DNA of 64,000 bases from Kiritimatiellia bacterium (GTDB lineage Bacteria; Verrucomicrobiota; Kiritimatiellia; RFP12; UBA1067). The notes beneath the pieces are model-generated. The model searched no databases, was not told the origin of the DNA, and worked only from the letters and a program-made list of their open reading frames with translations. Each line of letters opens with the position of its first letter. Positions within the stretch are counted from its first letter, which is position 1. The position numbers and the translations under genes were made by a program. Of the stretch, positions 14,326 through 63,200 are shown piece by piece. The stretch is from positions 17,498 to 81,497 of the forward strand of contig JAKSOZ010000003.1 in NCBI GenBank assembly GCA_024405265.1, read 5' to 3'.

Positions 14326-15530
14326 ATCTTCTCCTTTTTCGGTATATTATATAATTTGGCGCGGTACTTGGCAACCGTTCGACGCGCCATTTTGACGCCG
14401 CGCTTCTGAAGCTCCTCGGAAATCACGCGATCTCCCGGATAGTTTCCGCTCTCGGCGTACTCTTTCAAAATTTTCTTAAGCTCTTCGACCTCGGTCTTTT
14501 CGCCTTTAACGAAGAACGCTCTTAAAGGAACGACGCCGAAGGGAGTTCGGACGTACTTTCGAGCCGCCGCGCGAGAAACCGTCGCGACGTGACACTTAGC
14601 TTCTTTCGCAACATCGACCATCGTCTGGCGCTTGAGCGCGATTTTGCCGCGCTTCAAATATTCCTCCTGCCCGGCAATGGCGAGCGTCGCTATTTTCATG
14701 AGCGTCTGCTGACGACGAACGAGCGCCGCGCGGAATTCTCTCGCGTGATTCACCCTTTCCGCGGCATATTTGCGCGTCTCGGGCTCGATCGTCTTGTCCT
14801 TCGCCATCTGCAAATATTTAGGCGAGATATTGATCTCTGGGATATCTTTCGTTTCGATTTCCACGTTACCCGAGCGGTCGACTTTAATATCGGCATTAAC
14901 GAACTGAGGCTTCGTATGATCGAAGAGCTTACCGGGGAAAGGATCGAGTTTTTTCAATATCCTGATCGCCGCGGGGCTTAACTTCCCGCTCATAAGCGAA
15001 TCAAGCTCCTTATCCAAAACCGCCCTTTCGCCCTCGGAAAGCGTCTTCAACTGCGCGCGGAAACACTCCACGAGATCTTTCGCTCCGCAACCGAGCGGAT
15101 CAAGGCTCATCACGAACGCGCGCGAACGCTCAAGCGACTCTTCACTCGCGCCGGTAATCATCACCAGATCCGGCATCGAACCGACAAAACGTCCGTTCTC
15201 ATCAAGATTCTCGATTATCTTCGCACAAAGTTCTTTCGCGTCCGCAGGGATATCGCTCATTTCAAGCTCGCTCAAAAGATGCTCTTCGAGGCTCTCGGAG
15301 TCTTCCGCCGCCAGATTGTCGGTCAAAGCGGAAGAGGCGGCAATAAGCGAGCGATCGGTCACGAAAGTCGGGGAAAACTCAACGTCTTCAATAGCGGGGT
15401 TCGATTCCACTTCCTTTTTGACCGCGTCTCTAAGCTCTCCGATCGGAAGCTGCAAGAGATTGAGCCCCATCCACATCGCCGGGGTCATCGCTTGCTTTTG
15501 GACTTGGCTCGGACGTTGAGTAAGCTGCAT
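14322..15530 (-). CDS. rpoN: RNA polymerase sigma-54 factor (short form, 402 aa)
   Basis: Region I Q-rich N-terminus [24 protein letters not shown], and C-terminal RpoN box ARRTVAKYR. Confidence 0.9.
14346..14351 (-). promoter_or_regulatory. Possible internal -10 (TATAAT) upstream of rpiB-glyA
   Basis: Minus strand reads TATAAT-ATACC-GAAAAAGGAGAAGAT-ATG inside the rpoN 3-prime end. No TG extension, so this is weak. Confidence 0.3.
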
Positions 15531-58636: not shown

Positions 58637-58797
58637 TTACCTTAGGCAACCTCTACAACTCGCCTTAGGCGACACCTCCAAGTTGCCTTAGGCGACTTCA
58701 CAACTTCGCCTAAGGCGACTTCATCACTTCGCCTAAGGCGACATCGACAACTCGCCTAAGGCGACATTATAAACTCGACTAAGGCGACTTTCAGCCA
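58637..58797. repeat. Tandem array of 7 x 23 bp with palindromic core TCGCC-TWA-GGCGAC
   Basis: The CCTWAGG core recurs at 58640, 58663, 58686, 58709, 58732, 58755 and 58778, an exact 23-bp phase. Each unit has a 14-bp conserved core and a 9-bp semi-variable tail ending AAC(T). Non-coding. Confidence 0.9.
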
Positions 58798-58879: not shown

Positions 58880-59947
58880 TCAAAGTTGTTCTACTTTAAG
58901 TTTTCCTCTCTCATCAACCTTAAAGTATAGCGCGTAACAATTACGCTCGCAATGCTCGGGCATACACGAAGAAGCTTCCCGCTGATCGCGATGCTCGAGC
59001 GTAGGCGAAGGTTCTGGCGACTGATCGCGATGCTCGGGCAGTGCCCGAGCAATCTTAACGATCTCGTCATTAAGCTCCAAACACGCCCCCCGCGAGAAAT
59101 CGACCTCCTCATTACCCTCCGCTATCTCTAAATACCGATTCTCGAGGAACGCGTCGATATAGACGCTCTCTGGTTTATAATCTATCGGCATCCTATTAGG
59201 CAGTATTCTGATGAATTTCGCGCTCGAACTTTTCGCGAGCATATCTCTCACCGCTCGCTCTCCAGGGCTGATAAAACCACTTATTATGACAAAACCCTGT
59301 TCGACCGCGTTCTCCATTCGCGTGACAATCTCGTCAATCATCTTAGCCGTACATTTTCGCGATATTCTTAACGAAACGAACTTTTCTTCGTTCAACAGCG
59401 CCAGATTTCCCACCCCTTTCCAATAATCATCCCGATCCAAGCGGAATGAATCGATTGGTTCTTTGATCCGAAGCGCTTCCGGGCGATTATGCATTAGCTC
59501 ATACTTGGCCGGATTATACGCGATATATCGCGCAGTTGCTTCGATTTTCTTTCTCTTTAAGCAAAGATGATCGTGGTATCCCTGCTGCCATTTGAGCGGC
59601 GGATTTGCCGCGATATCTTTGGAATAGCGAATAAGATGGTTTTTGAAGCCCGCAATCGCCTTACCGAGGTTTTTCAACGGCTCCGGCAAGTTCGGGAGTA
59701 TTCGTATATTGAAATGGACGTGATCCGGCATGACGACTCGTTCAAATAGCTGCAAGCCATCCGTTTTTATCGGAAGTTGCGCTAGAGTACGCTCAACTTC
59801 TCGTCCAAGCTCGTTCAGAATCACCTTACCATCGACGATCTTTCCGAAATATTCGCCTCTTGGATTTGTGGTGATTGTAACGAAAAGCATCGCACCATTC
59901 GAATAATCCCACTTCTTAAATCGTCGATAGAAATGTATCTCGGCCAT
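58880..59947 (-). CDS. IS200/RAYT-like HUH (Y1) nuclease fused to a C-terminal DprA/SLOG-like domain (tentative); tail encoded by 39-bp repeats
   Basis: N-terminal LFVTITTNPR..., VVMPDHVHFNI (HUH), WQQGYHDHLCL and ARYIAYNP are COG1943-type transposase motifs. Residues about 185-300 (RISRKCT..., GFVIISGFISPGERAVRDML, FIRILPNRMPIDYKPES, LEIAE) resemble the DprA Rossmann core. Residues 303-340 are 13-aa repeats (EHRDQ...). Confidence 0.75.
   Translation of the reverse strand: MAEIHFYRRFKKWDYSNGAMLFVTITTNPRGEYFGKIVDGKVILNELGREVERTLAQLPIKTDGLQLFERVVMPDHVHFNIRILPNLPEPLKNLGKAIAGFKNHLIRYSKDIAANPPLKWQQGYHDHLCLKRKKIEATARYIAYNPAKYELMHNRPEALRIKEPIDSFRLDRDDYWKGVGNLALLNEEKFVSLRISRKCTAKMIDEIVTRMENAVEQGFVIISGFISPGERAVRDMLAKSSSAKFIRILPNRMPIDYKPESVYIDAFLENRYLEIAEGNEEVDFSRGACLELNDEIVKIARALPEHRDQSPEPSPTLEHRDQREASSCMPEHCERNCYALYFKVDERGKLKVEQL
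58943..59055 (+). repeat. 3 x 39-bp tandem REP-like repeat ending in a perfect hairpin (59032-59050)
   Basis: The GCTCGGGCA-type motif occurs at 58954, 58993 and 59032. The last unit, CTGATCGCGATGCTCGGGCA-G-TGCCCGAGC, is a 9-bp-stem palindrome. The array lies inside the 3-prime end of the HUH gene, in frame (13 codons per unit). Confidence 0.85.
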
Positions 59948-59956
59948 ATGTTAGAA

Positions 59957-59965
59957 ATTATATCA
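59957..59965 (-). promoter_or_regulatory. Putative extended -10 promoter (TGATATAAT), near-leaderless HUH gene
   Basis: Minus strand reads TGATATAAT-TTCTAACAT-ATG (ATG 59947). Confidence 0.45.
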
Positions 59966-60030
59966 TAAGCTCACACTTCCCGCAAACGAAACCTCTCGAG
60001 ACTCGCGGCTCGCAGACAGAGCTCATACCG

Positions 60031-60180
60031 CAGATTGCGATACTCGGTCGTACGCGAATGAGCTACCCTCAGATCGCGCTACTCGGGCGAAGCGTTAGTC
60101 TCGCCTCCCTGATCGCGCTGCTCGGGCGAAGCGTTAGTCCCCTCGCTCTGATCGTGATGCTCGGGCAATGCCCGAGCTAA
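60031..60180 (+). repeat. 4 x 39-bp tandem REP-like repeat ending in a perfect hairpin (60159-60177)
   Basis: Motif at 60042, 60081, 60120 and 60159, an exact 39-bp phase. The last unit, CTGATCGTGATGCTCGGGCA-A-TGCCCGAGC, has the same stem as the copy at 59032. Same orientation as the left array. Confidence 0.85.
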
Positions 60181-60209
60181 CAACAAGCGCCGCGGAGTGC
60201 GCGGCGCTT
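60178..60209 (-). terminator. Stem-loop terminator downstream of the giant surface-protein gene (possibly bidirectional)
   Basis: AAGCGCCGCG-GAGTG-CGCGGCGCTT is a perfect 10-bp GC-rich stem, 38 nt after the stop at 60247. The minus-strand tail is GUUGUUA. The plus-strand tail GUGUUGGUUUUGUU is more U-rich. Confidence 0.5.
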
Positions 60210-60246
60210 GTGTTGGTTTTGTTAGATTTCAGCCATTGACATTGAG

Positions 60247-63200
60247 TTACTTAGTCGCCTTGACGCTGACCTTGTAGTACTTCACCTTATTGTCTCCGGT
60301 GAAGGTCATCGGGATCGAGACCGTCTTCGCCTCGCCGCTCGTCGCCTGATCGCCAGAGCCGGTCGCGCTTTCAAACGTACCATCAGGCGTATCGCACGAC
60401 GAAACCGCGTAGAAGAGACCCGGAATCGGGTTCGTGATCGTGAACTGAACCTTATCCGTCGATTCCTCAGTCGGCGCGGCCATTGTCGTAACCGCCGGTT
60501 GGGTCGTCTGATCATCCTTCAGCGTCGTCGTGATCGTGCCATCTGCGGTCGTAACCGTGCAATAGTCCGTCACATCGTACGCCGAACCGCTTCCGGTCGC
60601 GCTCGGGATCTTGACGGTAATCGTTGTCGGCGCAGTGCCCGTATAGGTTGCTTCCTGTCCGGGAACGAGGGAAACCTCCGTCGTACCCTGCGGGATGACA
60701 ATCTCCGGCGGCACACCGCCGTTCTGCATCAGCTCATAGACCTTAGCCAAGCCAACCTCATTGTAAACGACGCTGTAGCCATCAACTGTGGTCGTAACCG
60801 TGCCAGTGGCAGATGCAACCGTTGCTTTCGACGCTGTAGCCGTCAGAACAAGATTACCAGCGATCGTACCCGAACCTGTAATCGTACCGGCGACTTCAAC
60901 GCCACCGACCGACGTCCAGATCTTGCCCGAGCCGATTGTAACCGTCTTGCCGCTATTAACGACAATCTTACCATCGTTCGCGGCAGTTCCGGAATCGCCG
61001 ATCGTAACGCGAAGATTCGCGGCATCGATATTACCAGTGAAGCCCTCGACACTCTTAAGGAGGATGTTCGCCGTAGAACCGGCACGCGAATTAACCTTGA
61101 GCGTACCCGAGCCGGTAACCTTGAGGCCATAGTTGTAGCCGTTGGAACTATCGCCGATCCATAGAGCCGGTTCATCATTGGCATCAACGAGTTCAACCGT
61201 CGGGCCGAAATCGCCGCCGTTAGCAAGCCAACCGACGTTGCCGGTAGTAATCACTGTCGAGCTGGCATTGCCGTAAGCATTAATGTTGAAGTTCGGGCAA
61301 GTATAGCCACCTGTCGCGCTTTCGCTGTCAGTCTTTCTGAAGGACTTCTTCAAATAAACGCTTCCGTTCCATGTATTCGCCTGGAGGCTCGTCTGAACAG
61401 CGTCAGAAGGAACGCGCTGATCATAAATGAGCTTACCATTACCCGTCAGCTTGGCCGTACCGCCAATTGTTCCTTCGATGCGAATACCTCCGGTCTTCTC
61501 GGCCTGTCCCCAGGTGCCTTCACCATTAAGAGTCAGATCGCCAAGAATGGCATTATCATGATGATCGTTATTCCAAAAGCCGAAGAGGACACGCGCACCG
61601 GAATCGATTGTAATCATCGATCCGTTCGGCATATTCTTGTTTCCGTTCGACTCCCAATCATCATGACCGAAAGTCACCGTCGCATTGTTCGTGACCTTAA
61701 TCTTTAAGGGATCAGCAGGAGCATAGTCCTTCGAGACATAAACCGCTGTTGTCTCGTTGAAAACAACAGTATCATCCGCCGTACGCGTCGTTGCGGCAGT
61801 CTTTGCCTCGTCGGCATAGAACGTCACATTAGCATCCCACGTGTTATTATTCGTGCCGGTACCTTCCTTCCAATAGATTTCGGTTGTATTGCGCTTCGCA
61901 CGGAAGTAATAGCTACCGCCCTCGTAAACAAGACCACCGGTAATATAAGACGGATAATCGGGCTTCAGAAGTTGAATCTTCTCATTGTTCGACGCAATAA
62001 CACCCGTCAACTGGAGATCGACCGGCTGATTCAAAATCAGCGCACCAGTCAGCGACGAGAAGTCAAAAATGATCTTACCATTATCACCAAGCTCCGTCGG
62101 ACCACCGGTAAAGTCAAGCGCTCCATGCTCAATCTTGACCGTCGTATTAACTTCGATCTGTCCAGCCTTGATCATATTGGCCGTCGTCTCGGCAACATCT
62201 GCTGTGAAGGTAACCGTACCCGTACCGTTAATCGTGAGCTTTTCGTACGAAGCGGGAGCCGTAAGGTTATTCGCAACCGTTACGTTCCCTTCGGTCGTCA
62301 ACACCACTGTCTGATTTTCATTCGGCTTGTCGGCCTGCGTCACCGTACCATCCTTCGATGTCAGCGTCCACGCATCCGTCTTGACCCAGTCATCATCCTC
62401 GGTAATCGTGCGCGTTGCCGTGCCATTCAGAGAGGTATACGGGAATTCATCCGCAAACGCCTTAATCGCCTTCTCGCTCAACTGGCAATCAAAGATACGA
62501 ACCGCCGAGATTGTCGAATTTGCCGCCGTCGTATCCGTCGGCTTCACAAGGCCCGTCGAGCCGACACCGCCATGCACCGAACCAACCTGCAAGCTCGAAC
62601 CGAACGACACATTCGAAACCGCCTGCTCGGCCCAATACTTGCCATCGAGATAAACGATAATCGATGTGGCAGTCTTCACAAAGCCATAAGTATGACGTGT
62701 CTCACGCGCATTCGTCACCGTCATCGGATTACCGATGACCGAATAAGCGCTGTTACCCGTCGTACGGACAAGAATAACCTCATTCGGTGAGGTGCCGGCT
62801 GCAAGGCCGATAAGTCCTCCATCTCTCGTACCAAAGGCAATCAATACGCCCTTATTCACATTCGGTACGACGCCGGCGACCAAGCAGGTCCAGGTTGTCG
62901 GATACGAGACCGTAAAGTCTGAATACGGCGTTGCCGGCGTCTTAATCGCCAAGTGATTGTCCGTAAAGCCATTGGATTGCGAGTAACCGGTATCCCAATG
63001 AAGACTATTCGTATTCTTACCCGTGCTCGCCAGATTGCGATCATAAAGGAACGTCCAATCGTAAAGCGCAGCCGTATTCTTAACAACGGGAGTAATCGGA
63101 GTCGTTCCGTTTCCGACCTGAATTTCCGTACCATCAGGCATCACGACAGGTATCTTCACATCGTCGCCAAGTCCCTGGATCGTAATCGAGCCCTGAATCA

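Follow-up and report, generated by a model that had tools for sequence, protein, structure and literature searches.

What relation holds between a nuclease gene and the 39-base-pair (bp) tandem repeats that both surround and enter it is the question raised by one locus in a 64,000-nucleotide (nt) stretch of DNA from a Kiritimatiellia bacterium (assembly GCA_024405265.1, contig JAKSOZ010000003.1, positions 17,498 to 81,497 of the forward strand). This whole stretch is referred to as the window, and coordinates are positions within it. We consider it probable that the locus is of the REPtron type, in which a single-copy nuclease gene of the REP-associated tyrosine transposase (RAYT)/TnpAREP class, here with a DprA-like domain fused to it, has copies of its cognate hairpin both around and within it, the hairpin resembling the repetitive extragenic palindromic (REP) sequences. 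The gene lies on the - strand and the arrays and hairpins on the + strand unless stated, as follows.

58880..59947, - strand: RAYT-like/DprA-like fusion gene of 355 amino acids (aa), from the open reading frame (ORF) list
58943..59020, + strand: tail 39-bp array, two non-hairpin units, arms at 58954 and 58993
59021..59059, + strand: tail REP-like element inside the ORF; tag CTGATCGCGAT at 59021-59031, hairpin at 59032-59050, AATCT-TAAC to 59059; covariance model 50.1 bits
60031..60158, + strand: upstream 39-bp array, three non-hairpin units, arms at 60042, 60081 and 60120
60148..60181, + strand: upstream REP-like element; tag CTGATCGTGAT at 60148-60158, hairpin at 60159-60177, TAAC at 60178-60181; covariance model 54.8 bits
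58848..58885, - strand: third REP-like copy, inverted, TTGATTGTGAA-GCTAGGGCAGCGTCCTAG; covariance model 44.3 bits
59957..59965, - strand: extended -10 promoter element TGATATAAT, between the upstream array and the ATG, read directly from the sequence

The presence of two arrays with an exact 39-bp period, three units on the left and four on the right, had been proposed in an initial annotation and is confirmed. The arm motif GCTCGGGC or a variant of it recurs at 58954, 58993 and 59032 in the tail array and at 60042, 60081, 60120 and 60159 in the upstream array. Tandem Repeats Finder calls both as period-39 repeats, with 2.4 copies (74%) at 58947-59040 and 2.5 copies (85%) at 60068-60166; it leaves out the outermost units, which are too degenerate for the program. 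In each array the right-most unit is the best copy and forms a complete hairpin (stem of 9 bp, loop of 1 nt), GCTCGGGCA-G-TGCCCGAGC at 59032-59050 and GCTCGGGCA-A-TGCCCGAGC at 60159-60177, the two lying 1127 bp apart on the same strand. Units decay leftward, as had been noted, with identities to the hairpin unit of 0.79, 0.54 and 0.46 upstream and of 0.72 and 0.46 in the tail, and TAAC follows soon after both hairpins (59056-59059 and 60178-60181). The 22-nt hairpin pattern gave no match in 100 shuffles, and its occurrence by chance is unexpected.

The same annotation had the gene bracketed by same-orientation hairpins, which holds for these two; it does not extend to the third, inverted copy, which overlaps the stop codon, its TGAT tag containing the stop TGA (58880-58882). 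This copy is degenerate in the present genome and folds weakly; relatives L131-L133 (91% and 74% protein identity) have it as a perfect hairpin. In the orientation of the gene, the three copies are thus laid out as > promoter-gene > <, which is the logic of a REPtron with an inverted partner. Each upstream array unit consists of the tag, the tag-side arm and a 20-nt spacer, and both arrays repeat these three parts, are anchored on one complete hairpin and extend always on its tag side, with the units best preserved beside the hairpin. Units start with CT or CA ahead of GATCG. Upstream unit UP3 and tail unit TL2 are 77% identical, suggesting that the two arrays share ancestry, which would also account for the upstream array having the period of the coding one. 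The upstream array is itself non-coding here, as its peptide-like frame holds a stop and is out of frame with the ATG. Folding revealed no strong alternative hairpins in the partial units, and whole arrays fold only modestly better than shuffles (z -1.3 to -3.4), owing to the single full hairpin. The upstream element comes directly after the terminator hairpin of a giant surface-protein gene, a terminator-like hairpin being located at 60183-60211. The promoter element TGATATAAT, missed by a consensus scan as it has no good -35, is kept in the close relatives L131-L133.

That the gene encodes a Y1 HUH nuclease with a DprA-like domain, also proposed in the initial annotation, is borne out by structural comparison. 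An AlphaFold 2 (AF2) model of the 355-aa protein built with 42 homologs has a mean local confidence (pLDDT) of 86.3 and a predicted template-modelling score (pTM) of 0.80. The N-terminal half matches the E. coli RAYT-REP complex 4er8_A in Foldseek (E 9e-5, template-modelling (TM) score by target 0.56, root-mean-square deviation (rmsd) 3.7 A, 151 columns) and also IS608 and ISDra2 TnpA; the C-terminal half matches DprA 4ljl_A (TM score by target 0.50, rmsd 4.4), DprA 3uqz and the DprA-like ShosA 8zva. The protein is divided as follows.

Residues ~1-155: class-2 Y1 HUH nuclease, with H76-V-H78, W120-Q and Y141-IAYNP
Residues ~160-301: DprA-like Rossmann domain, with SGFISPGE
Residues ~303-337: repeat-encoded disordered insert, from alignments and AF2
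Residues 338-354: conserved terminal beta-hairpin, from alignments and AF2

PDH76VH78, W120QQGYHD and RY141IAYNP are invariant in the alignment of 42 homologs. The signature Y---NP/WQ is that of class-2 TnpA-Y1 (TnpAREP-like) proteins, IS200 transposases having Y---Q (PMC6006769, Table 1), and the best NCBIfam match is REP_Tyr_transpos (NF047646, 'REP-associated tyrosine transposase'; E 9.5e-13, 48.3 bits). The DprA-type Rossmann fold is found by structure (Foldseek) and does not reach the Pfam gathering threshold (PF02481, 12.9 bits vs 29.6); a profile search of the sequences in PDB gave no match for this domain, and PADLOC gave none for the gene. The DprA-like C-terminal domain is rare, with 191 cluster representatives among 1.84 billion proteins, and it almost always follows a Y1 domain. 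The protein family comprises 768 hits of 320-450 aa from rumen and gut Kiritimatiellia metagenome-assembled genomes (MAGs). One full copy of the gene is present in the genome, other Y1-like hits being 22-36% identical, and a single good copy is the usual number in the genomes of relatives; the gene therefore shows the RAYT trait of a low copy number combined with divergent paralogs. The gene was not found in any clear RNA run.

The left array had been placed inside the ORF and the tail of the protein considered repeat-derived. The position is correct; the tail as a whole is not repeat-derived, the array being an in-frame insert of ~32-35 aa. Homologs end ...EIVxIAxAGEGLAxYW..., and this protein reads ...EIVKIARA-LPEHRDQSPEPSPT LEHRDQREASSCM PEHCERN-CYALYFKVDERGKLKVEQL, the insert extending from LPEHRDQSPEPSPT to PEHCERN and sitting between ...EIVKIARA and the conserved final strands ...YALYFKV...EQL. 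The tail units are translated in frame as 13-aa repeats (SPEPSPTLEHRDQ / REASSCMPEHCER), and the tail element on the gene strand reads IARALPEHRDQ. In the model the insert is a disordered loop (pLDDT 45-70, residues ~303-337) that precedes two confident terminal strands.

The hairpin is not confined to the locus. As the initial annotation had asked of a dispersed family, further copies exist in the genome, eight in the MAG (1.71 Mb, 77% complete), of which three belong to the gene locus and the remaining five are on other contigs. The same eight, scoring 44-55 bits, are recovered by a covariance model, which gives no other hit better than E 0.03. Their 38-nt consensus is YTGATYGYGAT-GCTNNNGCA-N-YGCNNNAGC-TAMC, that is, an 11-nt tag ending in YGAT at the foot of an 8-9-bp stem and then TAMC. 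TAMC directly follows the stem in 5/8 copies, and TAAC is therefore part of the element consensus. The stems vary in sequence yet stay complementary (GCTCGGGCA, GCTCAGGCA, GCTTCGGCA, GCTCATGCA, GCTCGAGC); 98.4% of cells pair, three pairs have compensatory changes, and the covariation score was reached in none of 500 shuffles. The five dispersed copies lie in the following genes.

UvrA: in frame, reads AQALPEHHDQ
PriA: in frame, reads AQALPEHHNQ
ABC-F ATPase: in frame, opposite orientation, reads VDCDASAVPKLT
Efflux adaptor (membrane fusion protein, MFP): in frame, reads VDRDAHAAHELH
Glycosyltransferase-like ORF: in frame, the element being read in another of its frames, reads KLEHGSSIAIG

Six of the eight copies thus lie inside ORFs, with the element read in three different frames or orientations. 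The count of eight is a minimum, as three short contigs in the probable source metagenome share only 59021-59053 and have different flanks. The UvrA and PriA copies lie in hypervariable linkers where sequence of similar length has been replaced, and consequently they have no readable insertion boundaries or target duplications. The UvrA linker between the ATPase modules (G000:C19 ~14900-15100; L101-L130) spans 87-143 aa between fixed anchors, carries 50-aa low-complexity inserts in genomes G003 and G013, and seems to be a general sink for insertions in the genus. The copy in the efflux-adaptor gene (G000:C53:11833-11870, G000 being the MAG) is ~1.1 kb from a distant Y1-DprA-like paralog (25% identity; C53:9797-10702). 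Among 40 relatives the exact hairpin pattern occurs only in G009, a sister species whose UvrA segment is 96% identical, indicating that the element is lineage-specific, in agreement with the covariance model. A hit of that model in G004 was set aside as probably spurious, since it falls in a conserved UDP-glucose-dehydrogenase-like motif.

Strain comparison, for which Logan contigs of related strains (runs X2-X8) and the loci of relatives L131-L133 were used, established that unit copy number varies between strains, as the initial annotation had suggested it might, and does so in exact 39-bp steps. Across strains the upstream array has 2, 3, 4, 5 or 6 units and the tail array 2, 3 or 5. The upstream array is shorter by exactly 39 bp in X6 and longer by 39 bp in X3 and by 78 bp in X4; in X8, a 92%-identical relative, the hairpin closes two units earlier, giving the 2-unit form. 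The tail array is longer by 78 bp, or two units, in X2, and has one unit fewer in L131, the protein there being 342 aa as compared with 355 aa. In an X6 contig 287 bp (window 58908-59196), not a multiple of three, are deleted, with loss of the tail array and of some of the DprA-like domain; in some strains, then, the gene is undergoing decay. Neither of the two 74%-identical relatives has the upstream array: in L133 the TGATATAAT promoter, which is conserved, lies right next to the upstream terminator, and in L132 (L132:1-300) the position upstream of the gene is taken by other tandem palindromic arrays, of GTGTTGCGCAACAC units and TATTCAAACGCAGTTTTGAAC units. The core that is conserved thus consists of the tail hairpin and the inverted hairpin past the stop codon, and not of the pair that had originally been singled out.

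A similar organisation recurs in the protein family. In a survey of 68 homolog loci, covering arrays of period of at least 12 within -500 to +600 bp of the gene, arrays were found near the gene at 46, with a density 3.5x that of the flanks, and perfect hairpins are 2.7x denser near the gene than away from it. TGA stands at the foot of 43% of gene-proximal and 9% of distant hairpins (Fisher 2e-17). The hairpin sequences themselves are species-specific (TGGCCRARC..., TGGCAGCGC..., TCGCAAGGGC..., CGCAGG...), and they occupy recurrent places: upstream, between the HUH and Tyr motifs as > < pairs, in the tail at +876 to +923 nt, and inverted downstream. Loci L073, L078 and L089 have one complete hairpin followed by units with only the loop, the tag-side arm and the tag, located upstream and at the equal tail position, in sequences that differ from those here. 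At L056, L058 and L061 a 39-bp array runs in frame into the conserved N-terminus with no start codon between (L058:2541-2996; up to 11.9 units; peptide PQRQALSLESRAK) and is probably translated as an N-terminal extension. The period of upstream arrays is a multiple of three (3n) in 8/12 (p 0.02); as proof of a coding origin this is weakened, and the period is only weakly informative, because flank arrays are also mostly 3n (26/40 clusters).

By analogy with TnpAREP proteins and their GTAG-tagged REPs, the nuclease would recognise the tag and hairpin on single-stranded DNA and, again by analogy, would act mostly in cis, near its own gene. The arrays may then represent local polar amplifications of a segment that starts in the hairpin loop, takes in the tag-side arm and the tag, and ends ~20 nt past the tag. 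Such amplification could proceed by nuclease-catalysed cleavage and strand transfer at the repeated tag-proximal CT/CA sites or by slippage of replication stalled at the hairpin. Inside the ORF only stop-free 3n units would survive, encoding a tolerated disordered loop.

Several observations weigh against a REPtron-type locus. The foot of the hairpin carries no GT[AG]G tag, being YGAT here and TGA(T) across the family; the NF047646 score of 48.3 bits is below the family cutoff of 80, and that of Pfam Y1_Tnp (PF01797), 22 bits, is under its threshold of 23. The copies number no more than eight, as compared with hundreds in classical REP systems, and the TGGCC-type hairpins of relatives number only 1-11 per genome. 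The statistics for array and hairpin enrichment ignore phylogeny, and tandem repeats slip in copy number anyway, such that variation alone does not implicate the nuclease. With respect to GC skew, the strand with the tag at its 5' side is C-rich at 6/8 copies, a count from few independent loci that is confounded by gene orientation. The age of the dispersed copies is a further consideration. The UvrA and efflux-adaptor copies, and probably the ABC-F copy, are at the same sites in sister species G009, which has in addition one degenerate copy elsewhere; the PriA copy is absent there, the variable loop holding other sequence of similar length with GAGTTAGCT kept at the junction. Most of the dispersed copies are thus older than the divergence of the two species, with no more than one being younger. 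A close ortholog of the gene was not found in the 93%-complete G009 assembly, in which absence and an assembly gap are inseparable, so that in G009 the hairpins persist without the enzyme or with the enzyme unassembled. With old dispersed copies and no ortholog in G009, recent mobility is not demonstrated.

Against this background it could be argued that the hairpin is simply a REP-like or terminator-like structure and that the 39-bp arrays are a variable number tandem repeat (VNTR) produced by slippage or unequal exchange alone, the nuclease being uninvolved and the recurrence among homologs reflecting repeat-prone islets. Copy number does change by whole units, like that of any VNTR, an adjacent, unrelated 23-bp array varies too (-69 bp), the 3n period is unspecific given the flank arrays, and the dispersed copies are old and fixed. 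Passive variation of this kind would, however, have to produce the same polarity in distant homologs whose hairpins are unrelated, with units that comprise the tag-side arm and tag and a complete hairpin placed tag-distally, as well as a tail hairpin that keeps its position in the protein despite sequence change, a TGA(T) tag specific to gene-proximal hairpins, and stems that covary, and we regard it as unlikely. A regulatory role, which is compatible with the REPtron-type explanation, appears highly improbable as the explanation of the arrays. They would be iterons, serving as autoregulatory binding sites of the protein or its DprA-like domain, or mRNA structures acting as transcript stabilisers, attenuators or terminators. 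HUH Rep proteins have iterons next to a hairpin, and here one array is directly upstream of the promoter while hairpins occur in and just past the 3' end of the mRNA. For REPs located downstream of genes, a function as RNA elements has been suggested (PMC3733652). Operator sites are, however, not expected to be dispensable in close relatives, as the upstream array is, to decay with distance instead of being kept uniform, to be translated as N-terminal extensions or internal loops, as in other homologs, or to be dispersed inside unrelated genes.

The initial annotation had seen in the same-strand hairpins the left-end (LE) and right-end (RE) logic of IS200/IS605, under which the locus would be an autonomous transposon moving by peel-and-paste beside a TAAC-like target. 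We judge this extremely improbable. Its appeal lies in same-strand, subterminal hairpins with the tetranucleotide TAAC (GTTA on the other strand) at the foot, in a fold that resembles IS608 and ISDra2 TnpA, and in GAGTTAGCT being kept at the PriA junction of the element-free sister species, as expected of target-specific insertion. The Tyr motif is nevertheless Y---NP and not Y---Q (PMC6006769, Table 1), one copy is present per genome with no near-identical second one (best paralog 25% identical, paralogs <=36% identical), no tnpB-like ORF stands beside the gene, and no second insertion of the whole unit was found in the genome, relatives or metagenome contigs. The upstream hairpin and array that would form one end are missing in L133 and L132, and the conserved hairpins are the tail copy and an inverted 3' copy; moreover, as one putative end is inside the ORF, the gene of an excised element would be truncated of its conserved terminal strands.

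The REPtron-type reading can be carried further, into a proposal that we consider quite unlikely. The RAYT-DprA enzyme would be a hairpin-anchored array builder that adds stop-free 3n REP-derived cassettes singly at the loop side of the master hairpin, by repeated HUH cleavage and strand transfer at the tag-proximal CT/CA on single-stranded DNA, while the DprA-like domain would hold the strand or recruit RecA. Were this so, the enzyme would reshape disordered loops both in itself and in UvrA, PriA, ABC-F and other host proteins, constituting an enzyme-driven source of in-frame linker variation and not classical transposition.

In the neighbourhood of the gene, synteny with G009 (L152, G009:C67) ends at ~58245, directly past a sugar-transporter promoter, and for this reason there is no clean empty site for the locus. 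folD is next in G009; here the sequence continues with an ISL3-like relic, a 23-bp array, the RAYT-like locus and then the giant surface-protein gene. The 23-bp array consists of TCGCCTAAGGCGA palindromes directly 3' of the gene (window 58640-58788), is matched by a second such array on contig C55 (G000:C55:2785-2923) and has lost exactly 69 bp, or three units, in run X2. Each palindrome is followed by CATC/CTTC, as in the REP-like element, and these palindromes might form another hairpin family that has a partner of its own. The giant surface-protein gene ends in ~40-80 nt (window 60247-60300) that recur often, with several hits in G009 and with depth spikes and many differently flanked contigs in every metagenome; this gene end resembles a C-terminal sorting signal conserved across a large family of paralogs. 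In X5, one surface-protein paralog end is followed by another REP-like hairpin (GCTTGGGCACTGCCCAAGC-ATCAC).

Among domesticated single-strand transposases that coexist with short repeats of their own, those of REP/RAYT systems are the best known, and both the mechanism by which REPs are copied and the benefit of RAYT proteins to the cell are still unsettled. The locus described here would extend a system of this type to gut and rumen Kiritimatiellia with four differences: a different tag, an added DprA-like single-strand-DNA domain, hairpins at fixed places in the enzyme's own frame, and short polar arrays that change by whole units. Being short, polymorphic and anchored on a single hairpin, the arrays offer a tractable substrate for asking whether a RAYT-type enzyme can duplicate hairpin-adjacent DNA, and they also suit the question of how far REPs are tolerated, or used, inside essential genes.

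REPtrons are tnpAREP/RAYT genes flanked by cognate REPs or bacterial interspersed mosaic elements (BIMEs), described in E. coli, Stenotrophomonas and Marinomonas (PMC3333891, PMC8266576). The TnpAREP of these organisms recognises the tag and hairpin on single strands, with cleavage at CT/CA guided by the tag, and Marinomonas REPs are concentrated near the tnpAREP gene (PMC8266576). The locus shares with REPtrons a single-copy class-2 Y1 HUH gene (Y---NP, WQ) with a fold like 4er8, short GC-rich tagged hairpins within a few hundred bp of the gene, an inverted copy 3' and the same hairpin dispersed in the genome, and with the Marinomonas REPtron a concentration of copies near the gene. As in REPtrons, the gene is flanked within +/-1000 nt by hairpin repeats that are also found elsewhere in the genome. 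It differs in having eight copies, six of them intragenic, instead of a high-copy extragenic REP family, in the ~150-aa DprA-like C-terminal domain of the protein, in short polar half-hairpin arrays instead of BIME-type alternating pairs, and in hidden Markov model (HMM) scores below family cutoffs. From IS200/IS605 elements such as IS608 and ISDra2, with which it has in common the Y1 HUH fold, subterminal hairpins and an adjacent tetranucleotide as possible guide or target, it is distinguished by its Tyr motif class, a single-copy gene without tnpB, one 'end' inside the ORF, and the lack of evidence in genome, relatives or metagenome contigs for movement of a gene-carrying unit.

Tandem units decaying away from a master hairpin had been singled out as unfamiliar in REP/RAYT systems. 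This does not hold for tandem order as such, since P. fluorescens SBW25 has ordered tandem clusters of REPs and of the paired REPs termed REPINs, also beside RAYT genes, with periods of 71-184 bp (PMC3116915), and REPs in frame inside tnpAREP genes occur in TnpA-Y1 subclass 2.4 (Quentin et al. 2018, PMC6006769); it does hold for short polar half-hairpin arrays, of which we found no description in the literature searched. The SBW25 clusters resemble those here in their tandem REP-containing units with flanking sequence and in that each RAYT gene has higher-order clusters beside it. There, however, each unit has complete REPs or REPINs and is extragenic, whereas here the unit is 39 bp, both arms are present only in the terminal unit, and one array is translated. 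In subclass 2.4, as here, REPs are inside the nuclease gene with the frame intact, in a peripheral variable region, and short repeats explain length heterogeneity; inserts exactly between the HUH and Tyr motifs are shared with relatives of this gene. In contrast to that subclass, the HUH motif here is DH[VIL]H and not NH[IFV]H, the C-terminal tail is the site of the insert, the element has neither GTAG nor a double-foot structure, the protein has a DprA-like domain, and the lineage is Kiritimatiellia.

Intragenic REPs are known, many of them in replication and repair genes (PMC3733652), and these and the Rickettsia palindromic elements are in-frame palindromes like the copies in UvrA and PriA; intragenic placement is the rule here (6/8 copies) and the exception there. 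Atypical hairpin-foot tags have been reported for TnpA-Y1 subclasses 2.6 and 3, and a DprA-like domain is not listed for any of the 12 TnpA-Y1 subclasses (PMC6006769, Table 1). The DprA-like fusion, the TGAT tag and the nearly all-intragenic copies were, like the polar half-hairpin arrays, not found described in the literature searched. The lack of a GTAG tag, of high-copy extragenic REPs and of scores above curated HMM cutoffs sets the locus apart from the described subclasses, and the protein family probably constitutes a TnpA-Y1 subclass of its own, outside those described.

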